A stretch of DNA of 64,000 bases, from assembly GCA_030153785.1 (NCBI GenBank), contig JASKLF010000002.1, positions 38,565 through 102,564 on the forward strand, read 5' to 3'. Both the position numbers and the translations under genes were made by a program. Within the stretch, counting starts at the first letter, position 1, and each line of letters starts with the position of its first letter. Below the pieces are notes generated by a model. The model searched no databases. It was not told the DNA's origin and was given only the letters and a program-made list of their open reading frames with translations. This document shows positions 27,433 to 52,943 of the stretch, in pieces. The DNA comes from a bacterium (lineage in GTDB: Bacteria; Synergistota; GBS-1).

Positions 27433-28081
27433 CTCTTCTCACCAAATGTTGTCCTGGTCTAACCTTGATAGAATAGTCAAGCGGATAATTAATCTTTCTA
27501 AAATCGCCAAGGCGGCCCATTGCCTTTAGTTTCTCGTATATTTCTATCCAAACACATTTAAGGTCTTGGGCAACCTCACACTTGCCGTCGTTAGCTCCCC
27601 CACAAGGGCCATTGAGTATTCCTTTAGGACACCTTGAAAGTGGACATATAGCCACTCCGCTGGTCAAAAGACATCTACCACACTGCAAACATCTCTCTTC
27701 AAAGACACCAAACCGCTTCACTTCTCCTAAAAAGAGAGTATCATTAGCTGGAAAAACAGGCTTATCCCCCAATATTTCTCCCAAAGTCTGAAGCCCGTTC
27801 CCACATGCCATACATAAAACAGCATCACTTCCTTTAATCTCTGAATCATACCTTTTCAAATCTAACCTACTTTTCTGCAAATTACAAACGGGATCCAAAA
27901 CTATACTACCCGTAATTTTCTTCCCAAAGCTTTCAAGCTTCCTCTTCATTCCCTCTACCTCTTCCTCTCCACCAGTCTTACTTGCCGTTGCACAAAGTGA
28001 ACAGCCTACAATGAATATTTTCTCTAAGCCTTCAAGTTCACTCAAAATCTCATCTAAGGGTTTGCCTTTGGTAATTATCAA
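27410..28081 (-). CDS. metV: Methylene-THF reductase C-terminal-domain protein (MetV-type Cys-rich subunit)
   Basis: 223 aa with multiple Cys motifs (CSLC, CMACGNG, CLQCGRC, CPLSRCPK, NGPCGG). TTG start with AAGGAGGT 8 nt upstream. Overlaps metF by 23 nt. Confidence 0.75.
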   Translation of the reverse strand: MIITKGKPLDEILSELEGLEKIFIVGCSLCATASKTGGEEEVEGMKRKLESFGKKITGSIVLDPVCNLQKSRLDLKRYDSEIKGSDAVLCMACGNGLQTLGEILGDKPVFPANDTLFLGEVKRFGVFEERCLQCGRCLLTSGVAICPLSRCPKGILNGPCGGANDGKCEVAQDLKCVWIEIYEKLKAMGRLGDFRKINYPLDYSIKVRPGQHLVRRGVSSEQA

Positions 28082-28100: not shown

Positions 28101-29189
28101 CTAATCTCCAAAAGATATTCCAACCGCCCTCGCTACCTTCACAAGCTCACAATCGGGAGAAACCAGCTTAAGTCGCTCAACAGCCTTTTCTATAGGAACA
28201 GATGAGATTTCTCCCCCCTTCAAGCAAACCATTTCACCAAATCGCCCTTCCAAAGCAAGCTCCACTGCCTTAACTCCAAAGCGGGTTGCGAGGAGTCTAT
28301 CCATTGGCGTAGGAGAACCACCCCGCTGAAGATGACCCAAAACCGTAACCCTTGTTTCAAGCTCTATCATCTGCTCTATCCTGTCCGCAACGTATTTTCC
28401 TATACCACCGAGGCGAATAGGATCTGGGCTACCCTCCACTACTTTCTGAACCACAAAATCTTTGCCTTTTTCCCTTGCCCCTTCAGCAACCATTACCAAA
28501 CTGAACCTCTTTCCTTCTTTCTCCCTCTGTTTAATCTTTTCGCAAACTTTCTCTAAATCAAAGGGAATCTCTGGAATCAAGATTATATCAGCCCCGCCAG
28601 CGATACCCGCCACAAGGGCTATCCAACCAGCGTATCTCCCCATTACCTCCAATATCATAACCCTATGATGAGATTCAGCCGTAGTGTGAAGTTTATCCAA
28701 AGCCTCCGTAGCAGTCAACACCGCAGTATCAAATCCGAAAGTTAGATCCGTTGCTTCAAGATCGTTATCTATCGTCTTAGGAACACCAATAACGGGCATC
28801 CCCTTCCTCTTCCAGAACTCAAGAGCTATCTTTAAGCTACCATCTCCTCCAACAACTATAAGGACATCAAGTTTATATTTCTTGAAGTTCTCCAAAGCCA
28901 CATCAGACATGTCTTTGTAAATTAACCTTCCATTTTCATAAACGGGAAAATGAAAGGGATCATCTCTATTAGTGGTTCCAAGGATAGTGCCTCCTCGAGG
29001 AAGCGAACCGGAAACATCACTTGGGGTCAAAGGTCTTATTTCCCTCCTCACAAGTCCTCTAAATCCGTTTTCTATTCCCCAAACCTCTATTCCATACTTA
29101 CCAACAGCGCTTTTAACAACCGCCCTTATTACGGCATTCAAGCCCGCGCAATCTCCTCCGCCCGTCAATATCCCAATCCTACTAACCAT
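28101..29189 (-). CDS. 6-phosphofructokinase, long PfkA-family paralogue (phosphoryl donor uncertain: ATP or PPi)
   Basis: Motifs are GILTGGGDCAGLNAVIR, GGDGS and GVPKTIDNDL. The Lys replaces the Gly of classical ATP-PFKs. I prefer ATG 29189 (MVSRIGILTGGGD) over the track start at 29225. Confidence 0.82.
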   Translation of the reverse strand: MVSRIGILTGGGDCAGLNAVIRAVVKSAVGKYGIEVWGIENGFRGLVRREIRPLTPSDVSGSLPRGGTILGTTNRDDPFHFPVYENGRLIYKDMSDVALENFKKYKLDVLIVVGGDGSLKIALEFWKRKGMPVIGVPKTIDNDLEATDLTFGFDTAVLTATEALDKLHTTAESHHRVMILEVMGRYAGWIALVAGIAGGADIILIPEIPFDLEKVCEKIKQREKEGKRFSLVMVAEGAREKGKDFVVQKVVEGSPDPIRLGGIGKYVADRIEQMIELETRVTVLGHLQRGGSPTPMDRLLATRFGVKAVELALEGRFGEMVCLKGGEISSVPIEKAVERLKLVSPDCELVKVARAVGISFGD

Positions 29190-29205
29190 ACCAATCAACC
29201 CCTTC

Positions 29206-29949
29206 TTAAGGAATGGATAAAGCACATGGATAGGTTATACATTTACCACATATATCGGTTTTAGGCAAGTCACCATGATAAAGATCGTTTTCAAGACAAT
29301 GCTTATAACAAGAAAACCTGTCAAAGCCATCGATCTTAAGAGCTCCCACGGGACATTTCTCTATACATAAGCCACAAGTCCCTTCCCTTTTAAACAAACA
29401 GGCTTCCTCAGTAAACTTTTCATCGGGATCGAGAATTGCATCGGTAACAAAGGAATTCAGTCTCCCCCCACAACCTTCTTCCGTAATAAGCATGTTATTT
29501 ATGCCAAAGGTTCCCATTCCTGCTATAAATCCTACATGTCTATGAGACCAATAACTAATAAGCTTCTCCTCATCGAAATTATGAGTAGGTTTAACGGAAA
29601 TTCCGGTATAACCGTGCTCCTTTAAAAATCCTAACATTTCAAGAGAGAGTTCATAAAGAAAAGCGTTTGTTTCCACGTAAGCTATAGCCCACTCTCTTGA
29701 AGAATAATATCCTCTCTGATTACTTTCTATTACATCCTCTGTAAAGGGAAGAAAGGAAACAACAACACTTTTTGCCCCCTCAAAGATCTCCCAAGGCATA
29801 AGGTGACTAGGAAAGTTTTCCTTCAACTTTAACCACATAGGATCACTAACAGATGCAACCTTCAAAATTGGTCTTCTGTATCTTGTTGCACCCTTCCAGC
29901 CCTTAACTTTCGCTTCCAATAAATCTTTTAATTTTTGCTTTAAATTCAA
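29206..29949 (-). CDS. 4Fe-4S protein of the epoxyqueuosine reductase (QueG)/reductive dehalogenase-like superfamily
   Basis: 247 aa. Contains the ferredoxin motif CGLCIEKCPVGAL and a second Cys cluster (C..C...CGKC). Shorter than canonical QueG, so the functional assignment is tentative. TTG start. Confidence 0.55.
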   Translation of the reverse strand: MNLKQKLKDLLEAKVKGWKGATRYRRPILKVASVSDPMWLKLKENFPSHLMPWEIFEGAKSVVVSFLPFTEDVIESNQRGYYSSREWAIAYVETNAFLYELSLEMLGFLKEHGYTGISVKPTHNFDEEKLISYWSHRHVGFIAGMGTFGINNMLITEEGCGGRLNSFVTDAILDPDEKFTEEACLFKREGTCGLCIEKCPVGALKIDGFDRFSCYKHCLENDLYHGDLPKTDICGKCITYPCALSIP

Positions 29950-30021: not shown

Positions 30022-30486
30022 TTGTTAATTGTTCCAAAGAAAGCAACGCTTGTCATAGGAAAAGGCGAAGGAAAAACACATTTAACTGCTTTTGACAATG
30101 CCCTATTATCAGCAGGAATAGGTAACTATAATCTTCTCAAAGTCAGCAGTATTCTACCTCCTCATGTAGAAATCACGGAAAGTTTCTCCGTCCCCTTAGG
30201 TGCGCTTTTACCAGTAGCATATGGCAGCTTAACAAGCGAGGAACCAGGGCAGAAAATTGCAGCAGCAATTGGAATAGGAATTCCCGCCAATCCTGATGAA
30301 GTAGGGCTTATAATGGAGTTCAGCGGATATTGTTCTGCAAAAGAAGCTATGGAAATTGTTGAAGAAATGGTAAGAGAATCTTTCGACATGAGAGGGCAGG
30401 CGTTAAAAGAAGTAAGAAGCAAAGCTATCGAACATACGGTTGAAAAAATTGGCTGCGTGATAGCAGCCACGGTCCTATGGGGGTAA
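30022..30486 (+). CDS. pdaD: Pyruvoyl-dependent arginine decarboxylase
   Basis: 154 aa. Close pattern match to archaeal PdaD: LTAFDNALLSAGIGNYNLLKVSSILPP (Ser-Ser self-cleavage site) and the C-terminal IEHTVEKIGCV.AA..LW. Confidence 0.9.
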   Translation: MLIVPKKATLVIGKGEGKTHLTAFDNALLSAGIGNYNLLKVSSILPPHVEITESFSVPLGALLPVAYGSLTSEEPGQKIAAAIGIGIPANPDEVGLIMEFSGYCSAKEAMEIVEEMVRESFDMRGQALKEVRSKAIEHTVEKIGCVIAATVLWG

Positions 30487-31310
30487 AGTTTATGGGAGCT
30501 TCTCATAACCTGAGAAGCTCCAAAATCATTTTATGGGGAATACCCCTTGATGAAACTACAAGTTTTCGAAGGGGCACATATTTAGGACCCGAAAGAATAA
30601 GGCAATGTTCCTATGGACTTGAAACTTACTCCCCCGTTTTTGAGAGAGACTTAAGCGAGGTAAAATTCTTTGATGCAGGCGATATTTCGCTTCCAAGAGG
30701 AAAGCTTGAACAAAGCCTTAAAAATATTGAAAAATTTGCATACTCATTCTTAAAACGAAACTTTAAGCTACTTTCGTTAGGAGGAGAACACCTTATTTCA
30801 TTACCCCTAATAAAGGCAGCTTCCTCTGTCTTCCCTGAACTAAGAGTCATACATCTTGACGCTCATGCTGATTTAAGGGGAAAATACCTCGGTAATGAAT
30901 TATCTCATGCAAGCGTAATGAGAAGAGTCTGTGAATTTTTAAAGCCATCAAACCTATACCAGTTTGGAATACGATCCGGATTAAAGGAAGAATTTGATTT
31001 TGGCAAAAAAAACACACGCTTTTACCCCTTCTCCTTAGAAAAGGTGGATAAAGTAATAGACGAGCTCTCTCCCAAACCTGTTTATCTATCTATCGACATA
31101 GATGTAATAGACCCCGCTTTTGCACCAGGGACGGGAACTCCTGAACCCAATGGAATTACGCCTAAAGAACTTTTCAATTTCTTGGAAAAAATAAAATCGC
31201 TCAACCTTATAGCAGTAGATGTGGTTGAAGTATCACCTCCTAACGACACTTCAGACATAACGTCCCTCTTAGGAGCGAAAATCGTTAGGGAAATACTCTT
31301 TCTCCTTTAA
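30477..31310 (+). CDS. speB: Agmatinase / ureohydrolase family (agmatine or N1-aminopropylagmatine ureohydrolase)
   Basis: 277 aa. Mn-binding motifs are GGEH, HLDAHADL and SIDIDVIDPAFAPGTGTPEPNG. The start is ATG 30477 (overlaps the pdaD stop) or ATG 30492. Confidence 0.88.
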   Translation: MGVKFMGASHNLRSSKIILWGIPLDETTSFRRGTYLGPERIRQCSYGLETYSPVFERDLSEVKFFDAGDISLPRGKLEQSLKNIEKFAYSFLKRNFKLLSLGGEHLISLPLIKAASSVFPELRVIHLDAHADLRGKYLGNELSHASVMRRVCEFLKPSNLYQFGIRSGLKEEFDFGKKNTRFYPFSLEKVDKVIDELSPKPVYLSIDIDVIDPAFAPGTGTPEPNGITPKELFNFLEKIKSLNLIAVDVVEVSPPNDTSDITSLLGAKIVREILFLL

Positions 31311-32739
31311 TATAAGTAGCTTTAACCTCTTTAAGGTCCGGGGAGACAACTACGAAATCAGCCCAGGTCCCTTCTTTAATGTCTCCCCGTTCCTTTTCCA
31401 TAAAAACAGCATACGCCCCGTTATAAGTGTAAAGCCTGATAGCCTCATCAAAATCTAACCTTTCATCCTCGTTAGGCAAGGTCATAGCCGCCCTTATCCC
31501 CAAAAGCGGATCCATAGGAGTAACATCGCTATCAGACCCTCCCGCCAATATTAACCCCATTTTCGTCATTGTTTTTAACGGATTGGTTTTCCTCCATCTT
31601 TCCCCCAATCTCGATGCATACATCCCTAGTGGCCCTCCCCATAGTATCTCAAAGAAGGGTTGGACACTTATAATCAAACCAAGCTCCAAAGCCTTTTCTA
31701 TTCCGCCAGGCGGAGGAAGCTCAAAATGTTCAATTCTATGCCTGTGATTATCGCGAGGAAAAGCTTTTAAAAGCTTATCATAACACTTCAAGGTAAGCTC
31801 TATAGCTCTATCACCGATTGCATGAACCGCCAATTGTAAATTTGCATTATGGGCTTTAGAGAAGAAAGCAAAAAGCGCTTCCTCCGTAAAATAAAGTCTG
31901 CCCATGTTGGAGGGATCATCTGCATATGGCTCAAGCAAGGCTGCCGTTCGAGAACCAAAGGATCCATCTATAGTTACGCACCCGCCAATCCTTTTGAAAC
32001 CATATTCCAAGACCTTATCAACATCGGTAAACTGGGGGAATATAACTATCTCTATGGGAAGGCTTTCCTTCATCTCTAAAAGCTTATTAAGAGCCCTGTT
32101 ACTAAACCACTCCCCGCCCTCAAGAGCGTTCACCAAGGTAATCCCCTTAGAAATAGCCAATTCCGTAGCTCTTCTAATACCTTCCTCTATCACCTCATCG
32201 GGAATCATTTCCCAAAACTTGGCTCTCGCAATTTCGTTGGCCTCTGCCCTAAGCCAGCCATAACTAACCCCCTCAACATTCTCGTCAAGTTCTAAAATCT
32301 CCACAGCTTTACTATTAACGAGACAGGAGTGATGGTCTATCCTCAAGAGCATCACAGGATTATTAGGAGCGACATCATCTAAGTCTGCTCTTGAAGGAAT
32401 GGCCTTATCTTGGAAGGAACTTTCATCCCAACCTATACCCCAAATCCATTCTCCACGATCCCTTTTTAATACTGCCTCTCTAACTAAGCCCAAAAGCTCA
32501 TCCTTGCTTTTTACAAACTTCAGGTCCAAAGCCAAGGAGTCCACTCCCGTAGCCGTAAAATGAGCATGTGAGTCAACAAAACCAGGGAAAATATAGCTAT
32601 CTCCCCAGTCTACAATTTCAAAAAATGAACCCTCCTCGAAAGGAGGGTTCATGCCAATCCACCTTATCCTTTCATCACCTACCACAAAAGCCTTGTACTC
32701 TCCCCTTGTAGTCCAAACCCTTCCTTTAAAAAGTTTCAA
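31285..32739 (-). CDS. Metal-dependent amidohydrolase (Amidohydro_3-like)
   Basis: 484 aa. Motifs are GFVDSHAHF (HxH), an internal HAIGD, and C-terminal GSD. TTG start. The 3' end overlaps speB convergently by 26 nt. Confidence 0.75.
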   Translation of the reverse strand: MKLFKGRVWTTRGEYKAFVVGDERIRWIGMNPPFEEGSFFEIVDWGDSYIFPGFVDSHAHFTATGVDSLALDLKFVKSKDELLGLVREAVLKRDRGEWIWGIGWDESSFQDKAIPSRADLDDVAPNNPVMLLRIDHHSCLVNSKAVEILELDENVEGVSYGWLRAEANEIARAKFWEMIPDEVIEEGIRRATELAISKGITLVNALEGGEWFSNRALNKLLEMKESLPIEIVIFPQFTDVDKVLEYGFKRIGGCVTIDGSFGSRTAALLEPYADDPSNMGRLYFTEEALFAFFSKAHNANLQLAVHAIGDRAIELTLKCYDKLLKAFPRDNHRHRIEHFELPPPGGIEKALELGLIISVQPFFEILWGGPLGMYASRLGERWRKTNPLKTMTKMGLILAGGSDSDVTPMDPLLGIRAAMTLPNEDERLDFDEAIRLYTYNGAYAVFMEKERGDIKEGTWADFVVVSPDLKEVKATYIKGERVFP

Positions 32740-32742
32740 CGA

Positions 32743-33552
32743 CTACACCTCCTCATAAAGAGTAAAGTTTAGAACTGCCCTATGAAGATGAGGAGAGTAA
32801 ATTTTAGTTTCCACCGCCGTATCTTTTCTAAAATTCATTGGGTCAACTCTCTTGGAACCCATGGAAAATGTCCATAAACCTCCAGGATATGTAGGGACTA
32901 CCGTCCAATATAGGGTATGATACTTAAAGAGTTCAGAAAGATATCCTTGAACTCTTCTTATCACATTTCCCATGATATATGGGTTTTCCGTCTGAGAACA
33001 GCAGACGCCATCCTCTCCAAGGATGCAGGAAACCGAGAGGAAAAAGTCTCTACTAAATAGTAGTTCAGCAAAGTCGTAAGGATCCGTTGAGTCAACCAAA
33101 GCTACATCGAATTTTTCTTTCGTTTCCTTGACATATTTAACCCCATCTTCGTATAGAATCTCAAGACGAGGATCTTCTAAAGCACAAGATATCTTGGGGA
33201 AAAACTCCTTACAAATTTCAACTACCCTTTTATCTATCTCAACCATGGTTACCTTCTCAACACCAGGGTGCTTTAAAACTTCCCTTGCCGTTCCTCCATC
33301 CCCTCCTCCTATGATTAAAACCCTCTTAGGAGAAGGATGCGTGAACATGGGGACATGTACAAGCATTTCATGATAGAAAACTTCATCCTTTTCTGTGACC
33401 TGAATCGCACCATTCAATACCAGTGCCTTGCCATAGCTTTCTGTTAAAACCACAGCTATTTCCTGAAAATCGCTTTTTTCATAATGTAGAACTTGTAAGA
33501 CCTTAACATCACAAGCTTGGCCCTCCACCTTGTCATGTAGCCACAATTCCAT
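32743..33552 (-). CDS. speE: Spermidine synthase / aminopropyltransferase
   Basis: 269 aa. Motifs are LVLNG..Q..E.DE..YHEML, VLIIGGGDGG..REVLKH and DSTDP. Confidence 0.9.
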   Translation of the reverse strand: MELWLHDKVEGQACDVKVLQVLHYEKSDFQEIAVVLTESYGKALVLNGAIQVTEKDEVFYHEMLVHVPMFTHPSPKRVLIIGGGDGGTAREVLKHPGVEKVTMVEIDKRVVEICKEFFPKISCALEDPRLEILYEDGVKYVKETKEKFDVALVDSTDPYDFAELLFSRDFFLSVSCILGEDGVCCSQTENPYIMGNVIRRVQGYLSELFKYHTLYWTVVPTYPGGLWTFSMGSKRVDPMNFRKDTAVETKIYSPHLHRAVLNFTLYEEV

Positions 33553-36178: not shown

Positions 36179-37214
36179 AATACTCGAAGAACTAATACGC
36201 ATCGAAAGTGTGACTGGAAACGAAGGGAAACTACAAGAGTGGCTTAAAAAATACTTAGAACAACGCGGTTTTGAAGTAAAATTACAAGAAGTATTACCCC
36301 ACAGACCCAATCTATACGCCCAAAGGGGATCCTCAAATATGCTTATTGCCACGCATGCAGACACGGTACCAGCATGGGAACATCCTTACGCATTCCTTCC
36401 CTTTCAAAAAGATGGCAGAGTTTATGGAAGAGGCGCCATAGACACAAAAGGACAAATAGCTTCTCTCCTTAAAGCCATAGATGAATGTGACTATCCCTGC
36501 GAAATAGCCATTTTTGTAGACGAAGAAAAAGATGGTAGAGGATCAGAAAGCTTTGTTCCCCCAAAGCGTTATGACTTCGCCATAGTCCTTGAACCTACAG
36601 AGCTGAAAGTAGCTTATGGAGAAATGGGAGGGATAAGCTTAGAAATAGAAGTAAAGGGAAAGTTTGCCCACGGGTCTACTCCTTACGCTGGCAAAAACGC
36701 CATAGAGGAAGCCTTAGACTTATACCAGAAGATTAAAGAAATAGCATTATCTCAAGAGAAGAGCCCCTGTTCATCTTTAAACCCCTGGATTAATCTTGGT
36801 AAAATAGAGGGAGGGCGAGACAGTTACGTTGTTCCAGACTACTGTAGGATCGCAATAGAAATAGGCATTCTACCAGGAAATAGAGCCATCGATGTTTTTG
36901 AGAAAATCTCACCACTTCTAAAAGAGAAAAACTATCATCTAAAAGACATTGACGACCCAATAGAGATAGAAAAAGACAATCCAATCTTAGAGCTTATAGC
37001 CTCTATATATGATGAAATCGGTTTAAAGTTTGAAAAAACTTTCTTTCCCTCCTGGAGCGATGCACATAATCTCGCCACAAAAGGAATTCCCTCTCTCATC
37101 CTCGGCGCAGGAAAACTGGAGCTTGCCCACACTCCAAGCGAATTCGTAGATTTAAAAGAGCTTGAACAATTAAAGGAAATAATTAAAGCCCTTCTACGCT
37201 TAACTCAAACTTGA
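36165..37214 (+). CDS. M20-family peptidase/deacetylase (ArgE/DapE-like)
   Basis: 349 aa. Motifs are ATHADTVP, GRGAIDTKG and VDEEKDGRGS. Overlaps the GNAT gene by 14 nt. Confidence 0.8.
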   Translation: MKLIEILEELIRIESVTGNEGKLQEWLKKYLEQRGFEVKLQEVLPHRPNLYAQRGSSNMLIATHADTVPAWEHPYAFLPFQKDGRVYGRGAIDTKGQIASLLKAIDECDYPCEIAIFVDEEKDGRGSESFVPPKRYDFAIVLEPTELKVAYGEMGGISLEIEVKGKFAHGSTPYAGKNAIEEALDLYQKIKEIALSQEKSPCSSLNPWINLGKIEGGRDSYVVPDYCRIAIEIGILPGNRAIDVFEKISPLLKEKNYHLKDIDDPIEIEKDNPILELIASIYDEIGLKFEKTFFPSWSDAHNLATKGIPSLILGAGKLELAHTPSEFVDLKELEQLKEIIKALLRLTQT

Positions 37215-38011
37215 CAATTGGGACAAAAATACGTGCCTCTTCCCCCCACCTCGATTCTAACTATTTTTGCCCCACAGCGAGGACATGGCTCTCCTTGCCT
37301 TCCGTGAACCTTTATAAACTTATCGAATCCCCCTACTTCCTCATCATCTGAGAAAAGAGAGGTATACTCACTCATGCCTTTGTGGTTTAAAGCTTCTTTT
37401 AAAACATCCTTTACAGAAAGATAAAGCCTTTCCAATTCGGAGGGAGATAAGGTTTTTGCCTTTCTTTCAGGATGAATTCCGGCCCTAAACAAAATTTCGT
37501 CAGCATATACATTTCCTATGCCAGCAATGAACGATTGGTCCATAAGTATAGCTTTCACCGTCTTTGAGCTCTTTGATAAACCCTCCTTAAAAAAATCAAA
37601 ACTAAAATCTTCATTCAAAGGTTCAGGGCCCATATTAGCTATAGCCTTTATCTCGCTCAAATCCTTCACAAGATCCAAAGTTGCCATCCTCCTTGGGTCG
37701 CCAAAAAACAAGCTATTTCCCGTATCAAATTTAATCTCAATCCATGGATTTTTGAGATCTCCACTATCCAAACCGTAAACGAGTTTTCCTTTAAGTCTGA
37801 GATGAAAGACAAGCTTGCTTCCAGAAGAAAGCTCTAAATAGAGATGTTTGCCCCTTCTTCCCACATCTAAGACAGTATCCCCAACTATTAGCTCAGCCCT
37901 AACTCCCTTAAGTCTTGAATCGTCATATATTTTTACCTCTTCTATTTTGCTTCCCTCTAAAAGCCTTTTTAATTTTCTCCTTAAAACTTCAACTTCAGGA
38001 AGTTCCGGCAT
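37205..38011 (-). CDS. mutM: Formamidopyrimidine-DNA glycosylase
   Basis: Start chosen at ATG 38011 so that the catalytic N-terminal Pro follows Met (MPELPEVE); GGAGGT lies 7 nt upstream. C-terminal zinc finger is CPRCG...GGRGTYFCPNCQ. Confidence 0.9.
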   Translation of the reverse strand: MPELPEVEVLRRKLKRLLEGSKIEEVKIYDDSRLKGVRAELIVGDTVLDVGRRGKHLYLELSSGSKLVFHLRLKGKLVYGLDSGDLKNPWIEIKFDTGNSLFFGDPRRMATLDLVKDLSEIKAIANMGPEPLNEDFSFDFFKEGLSKSSKTVKAILMDQSFIAGIGNVYADEILFRAGIHPERKAKTLSPSELERLYLSVKDVLKEALNHKGMSEYTSLFSDDEEVGGFDKFIKVHGRQGEPCPRCGAKIVRIEVGGRGTYFCPNCQV

Positions 38012-38032
38012 CACTAATACCTCCAACCTAAT

Positions 38033-39787
38033 TTAAATCAGCTTTACCTCGCCCTCATAAACTACTCCCCTCTCCGCATCTACGGAAATTACCATCCCAT
38101 CCCTAATTTTATTGAGTGCGCCCTCAGCCCCCACTATAACGGGTATCCCGTATTGAAGTCCAACAATTGCAGCATGTGATGAAAGCCCTCCTTCCTCAGC
38201 CACTATACCAGAAACCCTATCCATCACAGGAATATAATCTTTATCGGTCTCCCTAACTACAAGAATACAGTTCTCTTCAGCCCGGCAAATAGCATCCTCC
38301 GCACGAGGAGCAAGCACAGCTTTACCTATCACCTTAGCCTTGCCAATACCTATGCCTTTTACAAGAATCTTAGCTACGACATGAACCTTTATTAGATTAG
38401 TAGTTCCAGGGATTCCAACAGGCACACCCGCGGTTAATACAACTACGTCACCTTCCTTGATATACCCGCTTTCTAAGGCTTTATTCACGCTCAACTCAAG
38501 GAGCTTGTCTGTGCTTCTCACATCTTCAACCATTAGCGGGTATACTCCCCACGTTAAAACCAACTCCCTTAAAGTCCTTCGAGAAGGTGTCGTAGCTATT
38601 ATTGGACAGTTAGGCCTATACTCCGCCACCATTCTTGCTGTAGAACCAGACTGAGTTGCCGTTATTATGGCAGATGCACCAAGGTCTCGCGCTATAGTGC
38701 AAGAAGCATGACTAACTGCATCGGGAATAGAAAGACTTATGTAAACCGACGGGTTACCTCCGTTTTTAAGTATTTCTTCCTCGGTCTTTTCTATTATCCT
38801 TCTCATAATCTTAACGGACTCAACAGGATACTTTCCTTTCGCTGTTTCCCCAGAGAGCATCACTGCATCAGCGCCATCAAAAATTGCATTGGCCACATCA
38901 TTAGCTTCTGCCCTTGTAGGTCTCGGGTTATATATCATCGTCTCAAGCATCTGAGTAGCCACTATGACAGGCTTGCCAACCTTTTTACAGCTATTGATGA
39001 ACCTTTTTTGAAGCAATGGAACTTCCTCGGTAGGTAATTCTACCCCCAAATCACCCCTCGCCACCATTATTCCATCGGATACATTTAATATTTCCTCGAA
39101 GTTTTGAACCGCTTGCCGGGTCTCTATCTTAGCTATTATCTTGGTGTTTCCCCCTGCCTCCTCTATTACCTTTCTAACTTCGATTAAATCACTTGCCTTT
39201 CTAACGAAAGAAATAGCAAACCAATCAACTTCCTTTTCAACACCCCATTTTATGTCTTGTATATCTTTATCCGAAAGAGCCGGTAATGAAATATCCACAC
39301 CAGGAACATTAACCCCTTTATTCTCAGACAACTCCCCTCCTACAACAACTTTACAATATATATCTTGTCCCTTCACTTCAAGGACTTCCAAGTCTATCTT
39401 TCCATCATCAATGAGGATGTGGTCCCCAGGTTTAACATCCCTATAGAGGTCTGGAAAAGAAATAGACACCCTCTTTTCGTCACCCTCTACATCTTCCGGC
39501 GTCAAGATGAAAAGCTCTCCCTCTTTTAGAAATACACTCTTCTCCCTTAATCTACCGGTCCTTATCTCTGGTCCCTTCGTATCCAGCATAACCGCCAATG
39601 GAATACCTAAACGTTCTTCGACCTCCCTAACCATTTTCAGCGATCTCTCGTGACTCTCATAGGTCCCGTGAGAAAAATTCAGCCTCGCAACATTCATTCC
39701 TTCCCTGACCATCTTTTCAAGAATAGATTCGCTGTTTGACGCCGGACCAAGAGTGGCTATTATTTTTGTCCTTTTAAGGCAAGCCAC
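38033..39787 (-). CDS. pyk: Pyruvate kinase with C-terminal PEP-utilizer mobile domain
   Basis: 584 aa. Motifs are TKIIATLGPAS, MVARGDLGVE, and a C-terminal GGLSSHAAIVG phospho-His-type domain as in Bacillus/Geobacillus Pyk. GTG start. Confidence 0.92.
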   Translation of the reverse strand: MACLKRTKIIATLGPASNSESILEKMVREGMNVARLNFSHGTYESHERSLKMVREVEERLGIPLAVMLDTKGPEIRTGRLREKSVFLKEGELFILTPEDVEGDEKRVSISFPDLYRDVKPGDHILIDDGKIDLEVLEVKGQDIYCKVVVGGELSENKGVNVPGVDISLPALSDKDIQDIKWGVEKEVDWFAISFVRKASDLIEVRKVIEEAGGNTKIIAKIETRQAVQNFEEILNVSDGIMVARGDLGVELPTEEVPLLQKRFINSCKKVGKPVIVATQMLETMIYNPRPTRAEANDVANAIFDGADAVMLSGETAKGKYPVESVKIMRRIIEKTEEEILKNGGNPSVYISLSIPDAVSHASCTIARDLGASAIITATQSGSTARMVAEYRPNCPIIATTPSRRTLRELVLTWGVYPLMVEDVRSTDKLLELSVNKALESGYIKEGDVVVLTAGVPVGIPGTTNLIKVHVVAKILVKGIGIGKAKVIGKAVLAPRAEDAICRAEENCILVVRETDKDYIPVMDRVSGIVAEEGGLSSHAAIVGLQYGIPVIVGAEGALNKIRDGMVISVDAERGVVYEGEVKLI

Positions 39788-39800: not shown

Positions 39801-40772
39801 CTAAATACTAAGTATATCGGCCAGCTTATAAAGCTCCATATCTATTTCCTTCTTTACTTCCCAAGAATACGGTAGGTCATAAACGGAAATTCCACCTTTC
39901 TCCCAACCTACTACCTTCCCTTCCACACCCTCCATAAGAAGCTCGACGGCTTTTGCCCCAAGACGGCTAGCAAGTATTCTATCAAAGGCTGTTGGAGACC
40001 CACCTCTCTGAAGGTGACCTAAAACCACAACCCTAACCTCGTAACCCGACTTATCCAATATTTGATCCCTTATCTGAGACGCAGAGGCCACTCCCTCAGC
40101 GACTATTATAATGCTATGCGTCTTTCCTCTTTGATGTCCTCTCCGCAATTTTGCGCATACTTCCTCAATATCATAAGGGACCTCTGGAATAAGTATAGAC
40201 TCTGCACCACTTGCTACTCCTGCCATAAGAGCTATGTAGCCCGATTTCCTCCCCATGACCTCAACTATAAACATCCGCTCATGAGAAGAAGCCGTATCCC
40301 TCAATCTATTAACAGCTTCAACAGCAATATTAACTGCTGTATCAAACCCTATAGTATAATCTGTTCCCGCTATGTCGTTATCTATCGTTCCAGGAACACC
40401 TATAGTTGGTATTCCTCTCTTGTTAAGTTCCCATGCCCCTTTAAAAGATCCCTCTCCACCTATAACAACCAAGCCCTCTATTCCTGCATCGTTAAGTCGC
40501 TTCACTGCCTCATTTATCCCTTCCTCAGTTTTAAACTTCTCGGAACGAGCAGTCTGAAGTATCGTCCCACCTCTCTGAAGTATCCCCCCTACATCACCAA
40601 GATTTAACTTTACAAAGTCTCCCTCCATTAAACCCAGAAAACCCCTTTTTATACCAATAACTTCAAGGTTATTATAAATGGCAGTTCTTGTAACCGCTCT
40701 TATAGCTGCGTTCATCCCAGGTGCGTCTCCACCGCTTGTCAACACTCCTATCCTTCTAATCTTCACCGACAC
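39801..40772 (-). CDS. pfkA: ATP-dependent 6-phosphofructokinase (classical PfkA)
   Basis: 323 aa. Motifs are [24 protein letters not shown] and GVPGTIDND (Gly at the ATP-type position). The start is GTG 40772 or GTG 40766, and either overlaps the mtrB stop. Confidence 0.92.
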
Positions 40773-40998
40773 CCGCCATCACCGTTCCATGCCTGCAAAC
40801 TATCTTAGCCTTACCTCTCACTTTTATAGCAGATGTATGCATTGTAAACTGAGCAATCAGAACTTCACCTTTGTCAAGCTTCTCGGTATGATGAAATTTA
40901 GTTTCCTCTCCTCTCGTAAGCCCTATTACAGAAACGCCGTTTTCTAAAGCTTTGACTACTATAAAATCAGCCAACACTACACTTTCATCTTTCATCAC
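40756..40998 (-). CDS. mtrB: trp RNA-binding attenuation protein (TRAP) homologue
   Basis: 80 aa. [56 protein letters not shown] is near-identical in pattern to B. subtilis MtrB as I recall it ([56 protein letters not shown]). The GLTRG / HTS Trp-pocket residues and the E-K-x-D / K-x-R RNA-contact residues are included. The start is GTG 40998 or ATG 40995, with a GAGGGGGG SD. Confidence 0.85.
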
Positions 40999-41010
40999 TG
41001 TCCCCCCTCT

Positions 41011-44000
41011 CTAAAACTTAACTGATACTTCACCTTTGCTAAAAATCTTTTGAATTTCCTCCTTCAGCTTCTCTGAAGGAGAAACCCTGTACCTAGAGCT
41101 CAAGTCAAGAACCACTCTGCTATAAGTATCCTTCACCTCTATAAGAACCCTACTTTTCCCACTATATTTCCTTAGCAGTTCTTCCAGTTCAAAAAGCTTC
41201 TCCCTATCTAAAAGGTCGATATCAACAGAAATCCAAAGGCAAGGATTAAAGTGCTTAGAAGCCTCCTCAATTGGGACTACCTTAGAAGCCACAACCCTGA
41301 TTCTATCTCCACTCTTATCCACATTCCCCTCAACAAGTATAACCTTCCCCTTTTTAAGAAGTTCCTCATTAACCCCTTCAAGTTTAGGAAAAACAACCAC
41401 ATCAATTGTTCCATCGAAGTCCTCAAGAGTTACAAGCAAGGCACTCCTCCTTTTGGCAACCTTGCTTACCATTCCCCCTACTATTACATTTCTATCTCCC
41501 TTAATAGAAAGCAACCTCTTGCTTGTTACAGTCACATACCTGAAAAACTCGTCAGCACATAAATCCAGAGGATGACAAGTTATATAAAAACCAGTAACTT
41601 CTTCCTCCCACGACAAAATTTCCTCTATGCCTGGTTCAGGAACACAGTTAAAATCGAAATCAAACATGGACTTTTGAAACAGGCCTTCCTCCTCCGCCAT
41701 AGATAAAACCTTAGGAAGCATCTTAAGTTTTTGACTCCTCGAGCCGGGTAGAGAATCAAAAGCTCCCGCTTTTATTAAACTTTCTATAACCCTACTGTTA
41801 ACAACCTTTAAGTTGACTCTCTTGCAAAAGTCTTCAAGACTTAAAAACTTCCCACCTTCTTCACGTGCCCTTATTATCTCGGAAATAGCGCTTTCCCCAA
41901 CATTCTTAACTGCAGCAAGTCCAAACCTTATTCCGTCTCCAACTACCTTGAAGCCCACATCACTTTCATTTACATCTGGAGGGAAAATTTTTATTCCCTT
42001 TTTTCTTGCCTCTCTTATGTAAAAGCCTATCTCATCTACCTTGTTCATCTTGCTAGAAAGCAAAGCTGCCATAAACTCGACAGGGTAATGAGCCTTAAGA
42101 TAAGCTGTTTGATAAGACAAAAGAGCGTAAGCTGCACTGTGAGATTTGTTAAATCCGTATCCAGCAAAATATTCCATTAAATCAAAAATCCTTTCTGCAT
42201 CAACCTTGCTTATACCCCTCTCAACGGCTCTTTTTACAAAATCATCCCTCACCTGAATCATTATCTCCGCTTCCTTTTTCCCCATGGCGCGCCTAAGAAG
42301 ATCAGCCTCTCCCAAAGAAAAGCCAGCCAAAATAGAAGCTATCTGCATAACCTGTTCTTGATATAAAATAACCCCATAAGTTTCTTTAAGCACCCCTTCA
42401 AGCTTTGGATGAGGATATATAACTGGTGAAACTCCATGCTTCCTTTGAATATAGTCATCCACCATGCCGCTTCCCAAAGGCCCCGGTCTATATAAAGCTA
42501 AAACTGCAATTAAATCTTCAAAACAATTAGGTTTGAGCCTCTGAAGAAGCCTTCTCATTCCTTCACTTTCAAGCTGAAACACACCAGTAGTATCACCGCT
42601 TTGAAGGAGTTCATAAGTCTTTTCATCATCGAGGGGAATCTCATCTATATCTATGGATATACCTCTACTCTTTTTAACGTTTTCAACCACATCGCTTACC
42701 ATAGTTAAGGTTCTTAAACCAAGAAAATCTACCTTCAAAAGACCAAGTTTCTCAAGAGGTTTCATGGAATACTGTGTAACCACTGAACCATCAGACATCC
42801 TCTGAAGAGGGGTAAACTCCGTCAAAGGTGCAGGGGCAACAATTACACCTGCAGCATGCTGGGAAGCATGTCTGGGTAGCCCTTCAATCCTTCGTGCTGC
42901 CTCTACTAGTCTGGCCACTTGAGGATCCCCCTTAACTAACCTCGCCAGCTCAGGGCTTTCCGAAAGGGCATCTTCTATCGTAACCTTTGGGCCAGGAGGA
43001 ACGAGCTTTGCTATTTTATCAACCTCTTTATAAGGCAGGCCTAAAACTCTTCCTACATCCCTTATAGCTCCCCTTGCAGCCATTGTTCCAAAGGTTATAA
43101 TATGCGCCACCCTATCCTCCCCATATTTTTGTCGGACATAGTTTATAATTTCATCCCTTCTTCTATCACAGAAATCCACATCTATATCCGGAGGAGAAAT
43201 TCTTTCTGGATTTAGAAACCTTTCAAACAAAAGCCCATACTGAAGAGGGTTAAGATTCGTTATCCCAAGAAGATAAGCAACAAGGCTACCTGCAGCCGAA
43301 CCTCTACCAGGACCAACAGGAATCCCAACGCTCTTTGCATAACGAATAAAATCGGAAACTATGAGAAAGTATCCAGAATATCCTGTTCTCTTTATAACCT
43401 CAAGTTCATAGTTCATCCTATCAATTACTTCCGAAGGAGGATTCTCTCCAAACTTCTCTCTTAATCCTTCGTTGCAAAGATATACTAAATAGCCATGAAG
43501 ATCATATCCTTCTGGAACATCATAGTGAGGTAAATGAAGCTTTCCAAATTGGAGATTAACTTCGCACATTTCAGCTATCTTGAGAGTATTATCCAAGCTC
43601 TCAGGAAGATCCTTAAAATCCCTTTCCATCTCCTCGGCACTTTTAAAATAAAACTCATCGGTGGGAAACTTTAACCTGTTTTCATCGGTCAAGCTGGAAT
43701 TTGTTTGAACACATAAGAGAATATCATGCCAAAAGGCATCATCCCTATTTAAATAATGGACATCGTTTGTTGCAACAAGAGGAATGCCTGTTCTCTTGCT
43801 TAAAGCAACTAATCCTTTATTTGCAATGTCTTGCTGAGGCATCCCGTTCTTCTGAACCTCTAAAAAAAAGCTATCTTTACCAAAAATATCCCTGTATTCT
43901 AAAGCAACTCTTTCAGCCTCTTCATGCCTTCCTAAAAGAATTAGAGATGGAACCTCACCCGCAATGCAACCGCTTAAAGCTATCAAGCCTTCACTATATT

Positions 44001-44376
44001 CACTTAAAATTCTTTTATCTACCCGCGGTTTATAATAAAAGCCTTCCAAATGAGACAGGGTAACAAGTTTCATAAGATTTTTATACCCCTTTTCGTTTTT
44101 AGCTAGTAGGGTCAAGTGGTAAAGAATTTGATTTTTATTGCCTTTCTTAGTATATTCCTCTGGAGTTATGTAAACTTCACAACCTATGATAGGTTTAACC
44201 CCTTCAGAAACGCAAGCTTCATAGAAGTCTATGACTCCATAAAGAACTCCATGGTCAGTTATCGCCACCGCTGGCATGTTCTCCTCCTTGGCCTTTTTAA
44301 CGAGCTCCTTTACCCTACAGGAACCGTCAAGCAAACTATATTCACTGTGAACGTGAAGATGAACAAATCCTCTCAT
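41011..44376 (-). CDS. dnaE: DNA polymerase III alpha subunit
   Basis: PHP domain start is FVHLHVHSEYSLLDG, with polymerase core and OB-fold regions. I prefer ATG 44376, which forms an ATGA overlap with the stop of the upstream gene, over the track start at 44403. Confidence 0.93.
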   Translation of the reverse strand: MRGFVHLHVHSEYSLLDGSCRVKELVKKAKEENMPAVAITDHGVLYGVIDFYEACVSEGVKPIIGCEVYITPEEYTKKGNKNQILYHLTLLAKNEKGYKNLMKLVTLSHLEGFYYKPRVDKRILSEYSEGLIALSGCIAGEVPSLILLGRHEEAERVALEYRDIFGKDSFFLEVQKNGMPQQDIANKGLVALSKRTGIPLVATNDVHYLNRDDAFWHDILLCVQTNSSLTDENRLKFPTDEFYFKSAEEMERDFKDLPESLDNTLKIAEMCEVNLQFGKLHLPHYDVPEGYDLHGYLVYLCNEGLREKFGENPPSEVIDRMNYELEVIKRTGYSGYFLIVSDFIRYAKSVGIPVGPGRGSAAGSLVAYLLGITNLNPLQYGLLFERFLNPERISPPDIDVDFCDRRRDEIINYVRQKYGEDRVAHIITFGTMAARGAIRDVGRVLGLPYKEVDKIAKLVPPGPKVTIEDALSESPELARLVKGDPQVARLVEAARRIEGLPRHASQHAAGVIVAPAPLTEFTPLQRMSDGSVVTQYSMKPLEKLGLLKVDFLGLRTLTMVSDVVENVKKSRGISIDIDEIPLDDEKTYELLQSGDTTGVFQLESEGMRRLLQRLKPNCFEDLIAVLALYRPGPLGSGMVDDYIQRKHGVSPVIYPHPKLEGVLKETYGVILYQEQVMQIASILAGFSLGEADLLRRAMGKKEAEIMIQVRDDFVKRAVERGISKVDAERIFDLMEYFAGYGFNKSHSAAYALLSYQTAYLKAHYPVEFMAALLSSKMNKVDEIGFYIREARKKGIKIFPPDVNESDVGFKVVGDGIRFGLAAVKNVGESAISEIIRAREEGGKFLSLEDFCKRVNLKVVNSRVIESLIKAGAFDSLPGSRSQKLKMLPKVLSMAEEEGLFQKSMFDFDFNCVPEPGIEEILSWEEEVTGFYITCHPLDLCADEFFRYVTVTSKRLLSIKGDRNVIVGGMVSKVAKRRSALLVTLEDFDGTIDVVVFPKLEGVNEELLKKGKVILVEGNVDKSGDRIRVVASKVVPIEEASKHFNPCLWISVDIDLLDREKLFELEELLRKYSGKSRVLIEVKDTYSRVVLDLSSRYRVSPSEKLKEEIQKIFSKGEVSVKF

Positions 44377-45368
44377 GTCTCTTCTCCCAATCCCCTCCAC
44401 CAATTATCAAGTATCTTCATTATTTCCTCTTTCGTTAGAAACCTCTCTTCCACAAAAACAGCAGGTTCACCCTGCTTATCCGAAAGTATATAAAAATCCC
44501 CCAATTCCCTCAATCGCAGGGCCTCCTCATCGGAAAAAAGCTTTTCATCAATTTTCTCTCCAAGCTGTGCTCCTATAACCTCTATCTTTATATCTCTCGG
44601 TGAAAAACCAAACTTAGGCGCAAAAAACTCAATCATTGCCTCAGCCAAGTCACATATCCAAACCTTAGGCATCTTTAAAATAAACACCTCTTCCCCCTTT
44701 GTCAAAAAAGCTGCTTCAAGGACAAGATTCACCGCATCAGAAATGGTCATCATATAGCGCCTCATAGAAGGATGAGTCAGTGTCAGAGGCCCTCCTCTTC
44801 TAATTTGAGAAAGAAACTTAGGGATAACAGAACCACGAGAGCCTAAAACGTTGCCAAACCTAACTACAGAAAACACAGAGTCTCTTTTGCCTTTATAGCG
44901 ATTAGCAGAAAGAGTTAGCTTCTCTGCTAAAAGCTTAGATGCACCAAGAGTGTTCGTCGGATTAACCGCCTTATCCGAGCTAATAGTTATAAAAACAGAG
45001 ACCTCTTTCTCTATAGAGACCTCTATCAGATTTTGGGTTCCCACAACGTTCGTCTTTACACTCTCAAAAGGATTATACTCACAAAAAGTCACATGCTTTA
45101 AAGCCGCTGCGTGGAAAACTATATCTATATCTTCAAGAGCCCACCTAAGTCTTTCTTTATCTCTTATGTCTCCAAGTAAATATCTAACCCTCTTATCCTC
45201 GCCTATCCGTTCTTTCAATTCAAAAAGTTTATGCTCGTCTCTTGAAAGCACCCTTATAACCTGTGGATTAAACCTGAGAAGTTGAAAAACTATCTCTCTT
45301 CCTATGGAACCCGTGCCCCCACTAACTAATATTCTTTTCCCTTCAAAAAAGCTTTCAAGATTCTTCAT
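44373..45368 (-). CDS. CapD/PseB-like NAD-dependent nucleotide-sugar 4,6-dehydratase (polysaccharide biosynthesis protein family)
   Basis: Rossmann motif is VSGGTGSIG, and the GASK(L/R)LAE active-site context is typical of the CapD/FlaA1 family. The start is ATG 45368 (alternative TTG 45380), inside the dnaX 3' end. Confidence 0.7.
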   Translation of the reverse strand: MKNLESFFEGKRILVSGGTGSIGREIVFQLLRFNPQVIRVLSRDEHKLFELKERIGEDKRVRYLLGDIRDKERLRWALEDIDIVFHAAALKHVTFCEYNPFESVKTNVVGTQNLIEVSIEKEVSVFITISSDKAVNPTNTLGASKLLAEKLTLSANRYKGKRDSVFSVVRFGNVLGSRGSVIPKFLSQIRRGGPLTLTHPSMRRYMMTISDAVNLVLEAAFLTKGEEVFILKMPKVWICDLAEAMIEFFAPKFGFSPRDIKIEVIGAQLGEKIDEKLFSDEEALRLRELGDFYILSDKQGEPAVFVEERFLTKEEIMKILDNWWRGLGEET

Positions 45369-46962
45369 CTTCTTCACCAATCTCCCTTTCTATTTCGACT
45401 ATGTCGCCACCGAACAGCTTCAAGATAGTTTGAAATGTCGGATGTTCGAGAATATCCTTCGAGGACTCCCCTTTCTCTTCCTCCGAATCCACTTTTTGCT
45501 CTTCTCTATCCGGCACAGTAAGTGTAACCTCTATCTCCATATCTTTCCCAAATACCTCTTTCAAGACATCCTTCAAAATCGCCATATTTTCAGGTCTTCT
45601 TATCTGCTCATAGTGAAATCTGAGCTCAGAGGGATACTCTATCCGAAGCTTCCCATCCCTAATAGAGCGGTCAGCCTCTAACATAAATGTGTAAAGTGAT
45701 ATTTTTCTTTCCTTCAACTTACTCAAAAATTCTTCCAGCTTCTCTAAATCATTCTTTTGAGTTCCTACATCTTTAGCAGTAACCTCTGTTTTAAGAACCT
45801 CCCTTTTGACCTTTCCTTCATCACTCCTGGCTTCATCTGTGGGGAAATCCCTTTTCTCCAAGGACAAAAGCTCCGAAGACATCTTTTTTTTCAGTTCCCA
45901 GAAAAACATTTCAAGTTCCCTAAATGGGGAACTACCCATACGAATCCTGTCCCCTCTTCTCTCTACAATATTCAGGATACTCCACAAGACATCTTCATCC
46001 CAATGTTTACTCTCCGTATGATAAAACTCCCTTTCGCTAGCAGAAAGACCAAAAATCTCATCTGCTCGAGAAGATAATTTGAAAACCCAAATTCTCCTAA
46101 AGATTTCTCCTAAATCCTCGAAAAGATATGGAACCATAACCCCTCTCTCTTTTAAGGAATTAATCCACAAAAAGACTTCCTCCCATTTACCCTCCCTAAA
46201 GAGAGGGATCTTCTCCATAACCTCTGACCTTGAAAGTATTCCAAAATTCCTTTCAAGGGACTCTAAGGTTATTTCCCCACCAAAAGCCAAAAGCTGCTCC
46301 AAAAGTGAAATAGCATCCCTAAGAGAACCATCGGCACGTCTCGCTATCTCCCACAAAACATCCTGCAAAATCTCTATGTTTTCTTTCTCCAATATTTCTT
46401 CAAGTCTTTTAACCATATATTTGGGATCTATGGGTCTGAAAGCTAAAAATAGGCAGCGAGACCTGATAGTCAAAGGTAATTTGTGGGGTTCCGTTGTAGC
46501 TAAGATAAATATAACTCGTGGTGGGGGCTCTTCCAAAGTCTTAAGAAGAGCATTAAAGGCCTCCAGCGTTAACATATGGACCTCATCCACTATATATACT
46601 TTATATCTACCCTCCACAGGAGCTAGGTTTACCCTTTCCTTCAGGCCCCTAACCTCATCCACTCCCCTGTTAGAGGCTCCATCTATCTCAAGAACATCAA
46701 AAGAACTTCCATCTGTAATCTTTCTACAAGAAGAACATTCATTACACGGTTCTTCTGCCGGCCCTTTCTCGCAATTTAAGGCTTTAGCAAGTATTCTTGC
46801 GACAGAAGTCTTACCAACACCTCTTGGTCCCGCAAAAAGATATGCATGAGAGATGCGGTTCATTTTTACAGCGTTTTGAAGAATCTTTACCACTACCTCT
46901 TGTCCAACGACTTCAGCAAACTTCTGAGGTCTCCACTTCCTATAAAGAGAAAGGTAGCTCAT
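45355..46962 (-). CDS. dnaX: DNA polymerase III subunit tau/gamma
   Basis: 535 aa. Motifs are RP..F.EVVGQE, Walker A GPRGVGKTS, Zn module C.EC..C, DEVHML and the sensor region. Confidence 0.93.
   Translation of the reverse strand: MSYLSLYRKWRPQKFAEVVGQEVVVKILQNAVKMNRISHAYLFAGPRGVGKTSVARILAKALNCEKGPAEEPCNECSSCRKITDGSSFDVLEIDGASNRGVDEVRGLKERVNLAPVEGRYKVYIVDEVHMLTLEAFNALLKTLEEPPPRVIFILATTEPHKLPLTIRSRCLFLAFRPIDPKYMVKRLEEILEKENIEILQDVLWEIARRADGSLRDAISLLEQLLAFGGEITLESLERNFGILSRSEVMEKIPLFREGKWEEVFLWINSLKERGVMVPYLFEDLGEIFRRIWVFKLSSRADEIFGLSASEREFYHTESKHWDEDVLWSILNIVERRGDRIRMGSSPFRELEMFFWELKKKMSSELLSLEKRDFPTDEARSDEGKVKREVLKTEVTAKDVGTQKNDLEKLEEFLSKLKERKISLYTFMLEADRSIRDGKLRIEYPSELRFHYEQIRRPENMAILKDVLKEVFGKDMEIEVTLTVPDREEQKVDSEEEKGESSKDILEHPTFQTILKLFGGDIVEIEREIGEEDEES
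45883..45891 (-). other. Candidate recoding/slippage site in dnaX (A8-G; in-frame A AAA AAG)
   Basis: The minus strand reads CTG AAA AAA AAG ATG (codons 358-360 = KKK). The heptamer A AAA AAG is in the same phase as the E. coli dnaX frameshift site. The -1 frame terminates 16 codons later at TGA 45835-45833. Confidence 0.4.
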
Positions 46963-52541: not shown

Positions 52542-52943
52542 TTAGGATGTGGCCTCATTGAAAAATCTTGTGGGGGTTAGATCCCTAAACCTACCCCTTT
52601 GCACTTCCAAAGTAGTTACCTTTTTACTTTCCAAAGCTTCTGCAAGATAACTAAAAGCTTTCCAGGGGTCTGCGGTTTCCCCGCAGGTAAACAAATCAAT
52701 AGCAGCGTAACCGTACTCAGGCCAAGTATGGATGGCCAGGTGGGACTCCGAGATTACAACTACTCCACTCACCCCATAAGGTTGGAATTTCCTGAAAACA
52801 ACATCGACAACTTCTGCTCCTGTTCTTGTAGCTGCTTCAACCATCGCTTCTTGAAGAAATTGAATATCATCAAGTAACTCAGGGTTACACTCGTAAGCCT
52901 CCACCAGGACATGCCTGCCCAAGGCCTTGTCGGTTACTCTCAA
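52542..52943 (-). CDS. speD: S-adenosylmethionine decarboxylase proenzyme (small bacterial/archaeal type)
   Basis: 133 aa. Self-processing motif is VVISESHLAIHTWPE, followed by DLFTCG. TTG start with AAGGAGGGGG SD. Confidence 0.9.
   Translation of the reverse strand: MRVTDKALGRHVLVEAYECNPELLDDIQFLQEAMVEAATRTGAEVVDVVFRKFQPYGVSGVVVISESHLAIHTWPEYGYAAIDLFTCGETADPWKAFSYLAEALESKKVTTLEVQRGRFRDLTPTRFFNEATS

Follow-up and report, generated by a model that had tools for sequence, protein, structure and literature searches.

A small open-reading frame on the minus strand of the 64-kb window (the window being the whole stretch of DNA analysed here) lies between dnaE, encoding the DNA polymerase III alpha subunit, and pfkA, encoding ATP-phosphofructokinase. 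[quoted passage not shown] The locus therefore raises two questions: is this a genuine TRAP, and does its position tie tryptophan sensing to replication and glycolysis, or is the position a matter of history?

A near-canonical TRAP between dnaE and pfkA

The predicted protein matches the Pfam TrpBP family (PF02081) with an E-value of 1.3e-38 and 131.1 bits against a cutoff of 21.3, over profile positions 3–67 of 69, and reaches 132.5 bits against a cutoff of 117 with the NCBIfam equivalog model NF009724, 'trp RNA-binding attenuation protein MtrB'. Among solved structures every significant sequence match is a TRAP, with the Geobacillus stearothermophilus protein (PDB 1c9s) matched at E = 1.7e-29 over residues 10–74, and identity to G. 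stearothermophilus TRAP is 74–75% over 65–66 residues. An AlphaFold monomer model, built on 41 homologues (pLDDT 82.9), has seven strands and aligns in Foldseek to 1c9s with a target-normalised TM-score of 0.90, an rmsd of 1.0 Å and 74% identity; the first 41 Foldseek matches are TRAP chains only, and the modelled subunit has the same beta-sandwich fold as the TRAPs of G. stearothermophilus and B. subtilis (1c9s, 1qaw, 1wap). The similarity is thus neither confined to a short segment nor shared with some other fold, and the earlier assignment of the frame at 40756–40998 as a TRAP homologue over nearly its whole length is borne out by Pfam, NCBIfam, 1c9s and Foldseek alike.

The residues expected to bind tryptophan and RNA are also retained, as the earlier note had stated. 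We number them as in B. subtilis TRAP (the window protein is numbered two higher, so that E36 is window E38) and assign them the roles that we take them to have in the solved TRAP structures. Nine of the ten residues of the predicted tryptophan pocket are identical (G23, T25, R26, G27, T30, Q47, T49, T52 and S53), the exception being D29, which is conservatively changed to E and is the sole change among the pocket and RNA-contact residues. The predicted RNA contacts F32, E36, K37, D39, K56 and R58 are identical, as is H34, and the HTS and K-V-R motifs are kept. In an alignment of 45 TRAPs, E38, K39, D41 and K58 (window numbering) are invariant, whilst F34 and R60 reach a conservation of at least 90%. 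Having E at position 29 does not conflict with canonical function, since the TRAP of another locus (L043) carries an identical 17-residue string that includes the same E, and its gene lies directly upstream of a 10-repeat (G/U)AG array and trpE. Differences from the well-studied proteins do exist: the N-terminus is five residues longer than that of G. stearothermophilus TRAP, the C-terminal tail is acidic (…AGVGED) where the tails of the G. stearothermophilus and B. subtilis proteins are basic, and E50 of these proteins is replaced by M. The small gene is nonetheless a genuine, near-canonical TRAP/MtrB orthologue.

The nearest TRAPs are those of 'bacterium 42_11' (99% identity), 'Synergistetes bacterium' MAGs (84–89%) and 'bacterium GBS-1' (80–81%); public records already give the 99%-identical protein and the 84–89% relatives the name MtrB or 'Tryptophan RNA-binding attenuator protein'. 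The window DnaE, PfkA and pyruvate kinase (Pyk) are 81–84% identical to those of GBS-1 and ~46–63% identical to those of Clostridia, and in comparison with two other Synergistota-labelled MAGs, DnaE and Pyk share 50–54% identity and PfkA 70% (L002 only). NCBI lists bacterium GBS-1 as unclassified Bacteria; GTDB presumably places the GBS-1 lineage in the Synergistota class 'GBS-1'.

In five clade genomes the 79-codon frame of mtrB is intact, with pN of 0.05–0.12, pS of 0.57–0.81 (near saturation) and finite dN/dS estimates of 0.05–0.11. The low pN against near-saturated synonymous sites indicates strong purifying selection on mtrB, and the protein is therefore in use. Nothing more than the small size of the gene would speak for a chance open-reading frame or a functionless pseudogene remnant, an idea that we regard as refuted by the family E-values of 1e-38 and below, the intact frame, the low dN/dS and a Shine–Dalgarno sequence of the gene's own.

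Packing of the cluster around mtrB

Called mechanically, the mtrB frame spans 40756..40998 on the minus strand and encodes 80 amino acids from a GTG at 40998. The adjoining ATG at 40995 is the likelier start, because a Shine–Dalgarno-like GAGGGGGG (41009..41002, minus strand) lies 6 nt upstream of it, within the dnaE–mtrB spacer, and because the resulting length of 79 amino acids (40756..40995, minus strand, stop TAG at 40758..40756) is that of all seven closest homologues (P0001–P0007) and of every public gene call consulted for relatives. A purine-rich GG run at the Shine–Dalgarno position is kept in five of five clade genomes. From the dnaE stop (TAG, 41013..41011) to the GTG the distance is 12 nt, the gap given in the earlier note, but with the likelier ATG start the gap becomes 15 nt.

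At its other end mtrB does overlap the start of pfkA, as had been noted, and the overlap measures 17 nt. The pfkA gene (39801..40772, minus strand) begins with a GTG at 40772..40770 that is invariant in five of five related genomes, and a Shine–Dalgarno-like GGTGAT (40783..40778, minus strand) lies 5 nt upstream of this GTG, inside mtrB codons 71–73, and is likewise invariant in the five genomes compared. Where four diverged genomes encode the identical amino acid, 5 of 7 codons within mtrB codons 67–79 keep the same third base, against 13 of 52 within codons 2–66, numbers that are small but fit a second constraint imposed on the mtrB 3' end by the ribosome-binding site and first codons of pfkA.

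Both genes belong to a packed, co-directional cluster on the minus strand, which runs from dnaX (45355..46962) through a gene for a polysaccharide-biosynthesis epimerase/dehydratase (44373..45380), dnaE (41011..44403, whose true start is probably an ATG close to 44376 that overlaps the upstream gene's stop), mtrB and pfkA to pyk (38033..39787, pyruvate kinase with a PEP-utilizer C-terminal domain), which follows pfkA by 13 nt, and fpg/mutM (37205..38026), the last gene. After fpg, a terminator-like hairpin (37137..37116, minus strand) is a possible terminator of the cluster. The entire block from dnaX to fpg, with the same tight spacing, is present in GBS-1 (L001) and in L081 and L084, the shorter L087 contig retains the stretch from dnaE to fpg, and the 15-nt gap and 17-nt overlap around mtrB are conserved in all four. 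A promoter and terminator scan between 36.5 and 47.5 kb, in which promoters were sought with a sigma-70 consensus that is perhaps ill-suited to this organism, gave counts at background, with none above it between the genes, and was uninformative. The narrow spacing itself leaves no space for signals belonging to each gene. Judged from the spacing and the sequence conservation, mtrB is probably co-transcribed with dnaE, pfkA, pyk and fpg, and it is plausible that translation of pfkA starts inside mtrB or is coupled to it.

The mtrB neighbourhood across genomes

We compared the synteny of mtrB in the 80 species-representative genomes that best match the window TRAP. In 54 of the 80 species-level loci, dnaE lies on the same strand no more than 2.6 kb upstream of mtrB, and in 33 of those 54, pfkA and/or pyk is found no more than 4 kb downstream as well. 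The window, with dnaE upstream and pfkA and pyk downstream on the same strand, fits this dnaE-linked class, and its 'wedged' position is accordingly not the peculiarity that it had been taken for. It is the usual place of mtrB in anaerobic, Firmicutes-like bacteria, and the order dnaE, mtrB, (accDA), pfkA, pyk is common across Clostridia, Halanaerobiales, Heliobacteria, Syntrophomonadaceae, Moorellaceae and Synergistota-labelled MAGs. The class includes loci from Acetivibrio, Ruminiclostridium, Anaerobacterium, Carboxydothermus, Heliorestis, Moorellaceae, Thermanaeromonas, Desulfoscipio, Syntrophomonas, Halanaerobiales and a Thermovirgaceae MAG, whilst the Paenibacillaceae and Bacillaceae mtrB loci are without dnaE. 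The absence from the window of a Bacillus-type mtrAB operon, in which folE (mtrA) precedes mtrB, was correctly seen before, with dnaE standing there instead; among the loci examined just two, from Geobacillus (L049) and a Bacillaceae MAG (L065), have folE immediately before mtrB. In this sample the Bacillus mtrAB arrangement is the narrow one, and linkage to dnaE is the common location outside Bacillus. A literature search returned no description of mtrB beside dnaE or pfkA, nor of TRAP regulons in Clostridia or Synergistota, and we do not claim that the synteny is unreported.

Two complete genomes of cultured Halanaerobiales, Halobacteroides halobius DSM 5150 (CP003359, L091) and Acetohalobium arabaticum (CP002105, L092), were reached through a TrpE search seeded from L043. 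Like the window they have dnaE upstream of mtrB, pfkA and pyk downstream on the same strand and a highly similar TRAP, but where the window genes abut or overlap, these loci are filled with further genes: their order is ytrH (on the opposite strand), dnaE, pgpA, one gene, mtrB, a whole trp operon, accD, accA, pfkA and pyk, with a gene for an SSF-family symporter between trpA and accD in Acetohalobium. Between mtrB and the first gene of the trp operon, both genomes carry a (G/U)AG array of 10 repeats, then a GC-rich hairpin and a T run, which is the classical layout of a TRAP attenuator. Acetohalobium has two additional arrays, a 6-repeat array that spans the start of the DAHP-synthase gene and an 8-repeat array over the trpE–trpD junction, and these resemble translational control sites known in B. 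subtilis.

The remaining dnaE-linked loci form a graded series. The order dnaE, pgpA, mtrB, accD, accA, pfkA, pyk is found in L021 and L026, the same order lacking pgpA in Carboxydothermus, Heliorestis and others, dnaE, mtrB, pfkA, pyk is the most common full pattern and that of the window, and dnaE, mtrB, pyk occurs in a Syntrophomonas (L045) and a Thermovirgaceae genome (L071). The Clostridia-type loci (Acetivibrio, Ruminiclostridium, Carboxydothermus, Heliorestis, Moorellaceae, Desulfoscipio) share the order and orientation of the window genes and, like it, show neither a trp operon nor an array within ±10 kb; however, in most of them mtrB is flanked on either side by a spacer of ~200–550 nt, wide enough for separate promoters, in contrast to the 15 nt and the 17-nt overlap of the window. 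Packing of similar tightness is found in Syntrophomonadaceae (L045, L059, L080) and in Synergistota-labelled MAGs (L002, L071), as well as on the dnaE side in L042.

The simplest reading of this series is that the window holds the most compact, or reduced, form of an old dnaE…(accDA) pfkA pyk neighbourhood, in which mtrB was once, or in Halanaerobiales is still, adjacent to its target operon. As a TRAP-controlled trp operon follows mtrB in the same neighbourhood in Halobacteroides and Acetohalobium, inherited synteny is the best account of where the window gene lies. Either the dnaE–mtrB…pfkA site once held the trp operon and lost it, or the operon was inserted there in Halanaerobiales; in both cases the adjacency to dnaE and pfkA is historical.

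Where the window TRAP may act

To locate (G/U)AG arrays, triplets were chained at 5–6 nt spacing, with one skipped unit allowed, in the window, the 80 loci and 12 extra loci, a scan which recovers the arrays of 9–11 repeats in control loci. The window contains no such array, in agreement with the earlier note: the best chain scores 5.0 (59318..59377), a score reached by 10 of 50 shuffles, and is part of a Glu-rich coding region where rpoB meets rpoC, and there is no meaningful chain of at least 4 upstream of the transporter genes or other gene starts. No chain of at least 6 was present in the flanks (±10 kb) of four clade genomes or of L002 and L071, the best flank chain being one of 5.5 in L001 that is inside a coding region and is not conserved in the window. 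The 57 mtrB-flanking intergenic regions of dnaE-linked loci likewise gave chain scores no higher than those of shuffled controls. Autoregulation by TRAP and TRAP control of pfkA were both considered and rejected, as there are no arrays near mtrB in the dnaE-linked loci.

Other regulatory elements and partners were also sought. Rfam models identified two tRNAs only and no T-box in the window, and no known RNA family adjoining mtrB in seven Clostridia-type loci. Neither the 64-kb window nor the flanking DNA of its relatives contained trp genes, and when TrpE was searched for with L043 as the seed, the matches came from Halanaerobiales and unrelated phyla, none being from the window's clade. One locus (L089) illustrates a trp leader suited to action in trans: its trpE is preceded by ~14 triplets and a terminator, but the 4 kb upstream hold no mtrB. 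As to the TRAP/anti-TRAP system, no small, Cys-rich anti-TRAP (RtpA) gene was found in the window, where tblastn with an anti-TRAP query gave no credible match (the best being the Fpg zinc finger, E = 0.03) and no open-reading frame has the C..C…C..C.G.G motif. Separately, a leader at 63059, which the earlier note had read together with mtrB as a sign of RNA-level control of aromatic amino acid metabolism, does encode a Tyr-rich leader peptide followed by a terminator; it is not a T-box, it precedes a gene for a DctP-family binding protein, and it is a separate matter from mtrB.

We put at about 0.8 the probability that the window encodes a canonical, trans-acting TRAP in an inherited and compacted dnaE…pfkA–pyk neighbourhood, with coupling to its neighbours a by-product of compaction. 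From the conservation of its residues, MtrB would be expected to assemble into a ring of 11 or 12 subunits, which when loaded with L-tryptophan would bind (G/U)AG triplet arrays with 2–3 nt spacers in mRNA leaders, and binding would lead either to transcription termination or to a block of the ribosome-binding site. The protein would act in trans on genes outside the 64-kb window, most likely those for tryptophan biosynthesis and/or tryptophan transport. The lineage of the window lacks the intervening genes, and its intergenic DNA appears to have been squeezed out, hence the probable co-transcription of mtrB with its four neighbours, and pfkA translation would initiate from the ribosome-binding site inside the mtrB 3' end. 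The coupling would then be a consequence of compaction, and not a regulatory tie of tryptophan sensing to replication or glycolysis. Of what the earlier note had proposed here, co-transcription and coupling stay plausible from the spacing, but a functional tie is not called for, the same gene order being common elsewhere.

Such a tie would mean that TRAP regulates glycolysis or replication, or is regulated with them, for example by binding the dnaE–mtrB–pfkA–pyk transcript, and that its placement is adaptive. The persistence of this gene order over very large phylogenetic distances and the start of pfkA inside mtrB in the window's clade both point that way, yet the cluster and its surroundings have no triplet array, either in the window or in its clade relatives, the 57 flanking intergenic regions do not rise above shuffled sequence, and a neighbourhood that elsewhere holds a trp operon offers the simpler, historical explanation; B. 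subtilis, in which we take dnaE…pfkA–pyk to be linked without mtrB, counts against it too, and we consider an adaptive placement very improbable. A further possibility is that this lineage, which may be an amino-acid fermenter, lacks a trp operon and has kept TRAP for genes of tryptophan uptake, export or catabolism. The strong purifying selection shows that the protein is used, the lack of trp genes in the 64 kb and in relatives' flanks would be expected, and TRAP of B. subtilis also controls transporter genes. However, 64 kb are too small a part of a genome for the absence to mean much, the canonical RNA- and tryptophan-contact residues make a changed ligand or RNA motif unlikely, and the transporter genes of the window have no candidate array ahead of them, so that we hold such retargeting to be unlikely.

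Returning to the inherited, compacted neighbourhood that we prefer, its history can be extended tentatively, in a form that we consider doubtful. TRAP may have arisen, or become fixed, beside a trp operon at the dnaE…accDA–pfkA–pyk site of an ancestor common to Firmicutes and Synergistota-like lineages; in the compact thermophile lineage the operon would have left or been lost, and TRAP would have become a constitutive member of a housekeeping operon, its dose set by transcription that follows growth, and would now control genes of tryptophan uptake or catabolism in place of biosynthesis.

The window mtrB, itself uncharacterised, belongs to a known family and lies in that family's common genomic setting. 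What it offers is in part corrective, in that the order dnaE–mtrB–pfkA should not be taken for a regulatory link. The Halanaerobiales preserve what looks like the fuller arrangement, with a TRAP-controlled trp operon at the same site, and the comparison gives a simple basis on which to study how TRAP regulons came to be rewired beyond the Bacillales and which genes TRAP controls in the Synergistota-labelled lineages.

The Tyr-rich leader and the surrounding gene content

The metabolic genes of the window include a glycine-cleavage operon (gcvT-H-P1-P2, 9670..13909, + strand), a split methylene-THF reductase (26551..28081, − strand) and a polyamine cluster of pyruvoyl arginine decarboxylase, agmatinase/arginase and spermidine synthase (30022..33552), with which an AdoMet decarboxylase at 52542..52943 is grouped. 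Genes for the synthesis of tryptophan or other aromatic amino acids are absent across the whole 64 kb. The window also encodes a second phosphofructokinase paralogue of 374 aa (28101..29225, − strand; PF00365, E = 5e-113), at a distance of 11 kb from pfkA, whose start overlaps mtrB, the TRAP gene.

The Tyr leader which the earlier note had placed at 63059 is indeed present, in a region (63008..63263, + strand) where a promoter-like TTGACA-N17-TATAAG motif (63008..63036) precedes a 36-codon open-reading frame (63059..63169; MLMVTSAASEKVYYYAYYYFYYYSPPEGGKGWLRKG), in which 11 codons contain nine Tyr and one Phe. A strong hairpin and T run follow (~63197..63237), and then a gene for a DctP-family (tripartite ATP-independent periplasmic transporter) binding protein starting at 63261; the 211-nt region folds with a z-score of −5.5. 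Rfam returned Thr_leader matches alone, all sub-threshold. By its sequence, the region is a leader-peptide attenuator rather than a T-box.

The only triplet chain of at least five in the window lies at 59318..59377 (− strand), just upstream of rpoC; it is coding sequence, the Glu-rich, GAG-rich 3′ end of rpoB, and was rejected as a TRAP site. The rpoC gene itself (54275..59305, − strand) is unusually long at 1676 aa.

Substituted TRAP homologues in other genomes

Five TRAP homologues from the comparison loci carry substitutions at positions which are near-invariant elsewhere, four of them encoded at ~10001..10230 of their respective loci (L046, L047, L071 and L072) and the fifth at ~7072..7299 (L073). 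The FHH motif is replaced by FNH in a Halanaerobiales MAG (L047) and by FAH in a Thermovirgaceae genome (L071), F32 is replaced by Leu in both L046 and L072, whilst an Aerophobetes MAG (L073) combines F32 to Val with T52 to Val. In this last locus trpE lies 1.7 kb downstream of the TRAP gene, and the triplet scan detected no (G/U)AG array of six or more repeats. Ligand or RNA binding may be altered in these variants.

TRAP target arrays beside and away from mtrB

In a Firmicutes MAG (L089, VENM01000018), the trpE leader (3778..3859) contains ~14 (G/U)AG/TAG triplets, arranged as two neighbouring runs with a terminator hairpin after them, and mtrB is absent from the 4 kb upstream; this leader exemplifies, outside Bacillales, a TRAP target that is not linked to mtrB. 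In Acetohalobium arabaticum (L092, CP002105), a single trp locus possesses three distinct (G/U)AG arrays. The first (9022..9069), of 10 repeats, lies in the leader ahead of a terminator; the second (9176..9203), of 6 repeats, spans the start of a DAHP-synthase gene that is fused into the trp operon; and the third (11466..11511), of 8 repeats, spans the trpE-trpD junction. The presence of these three arrays suggests that TRAP acts at both the transcriptional and translational level in Halanaerobiales.
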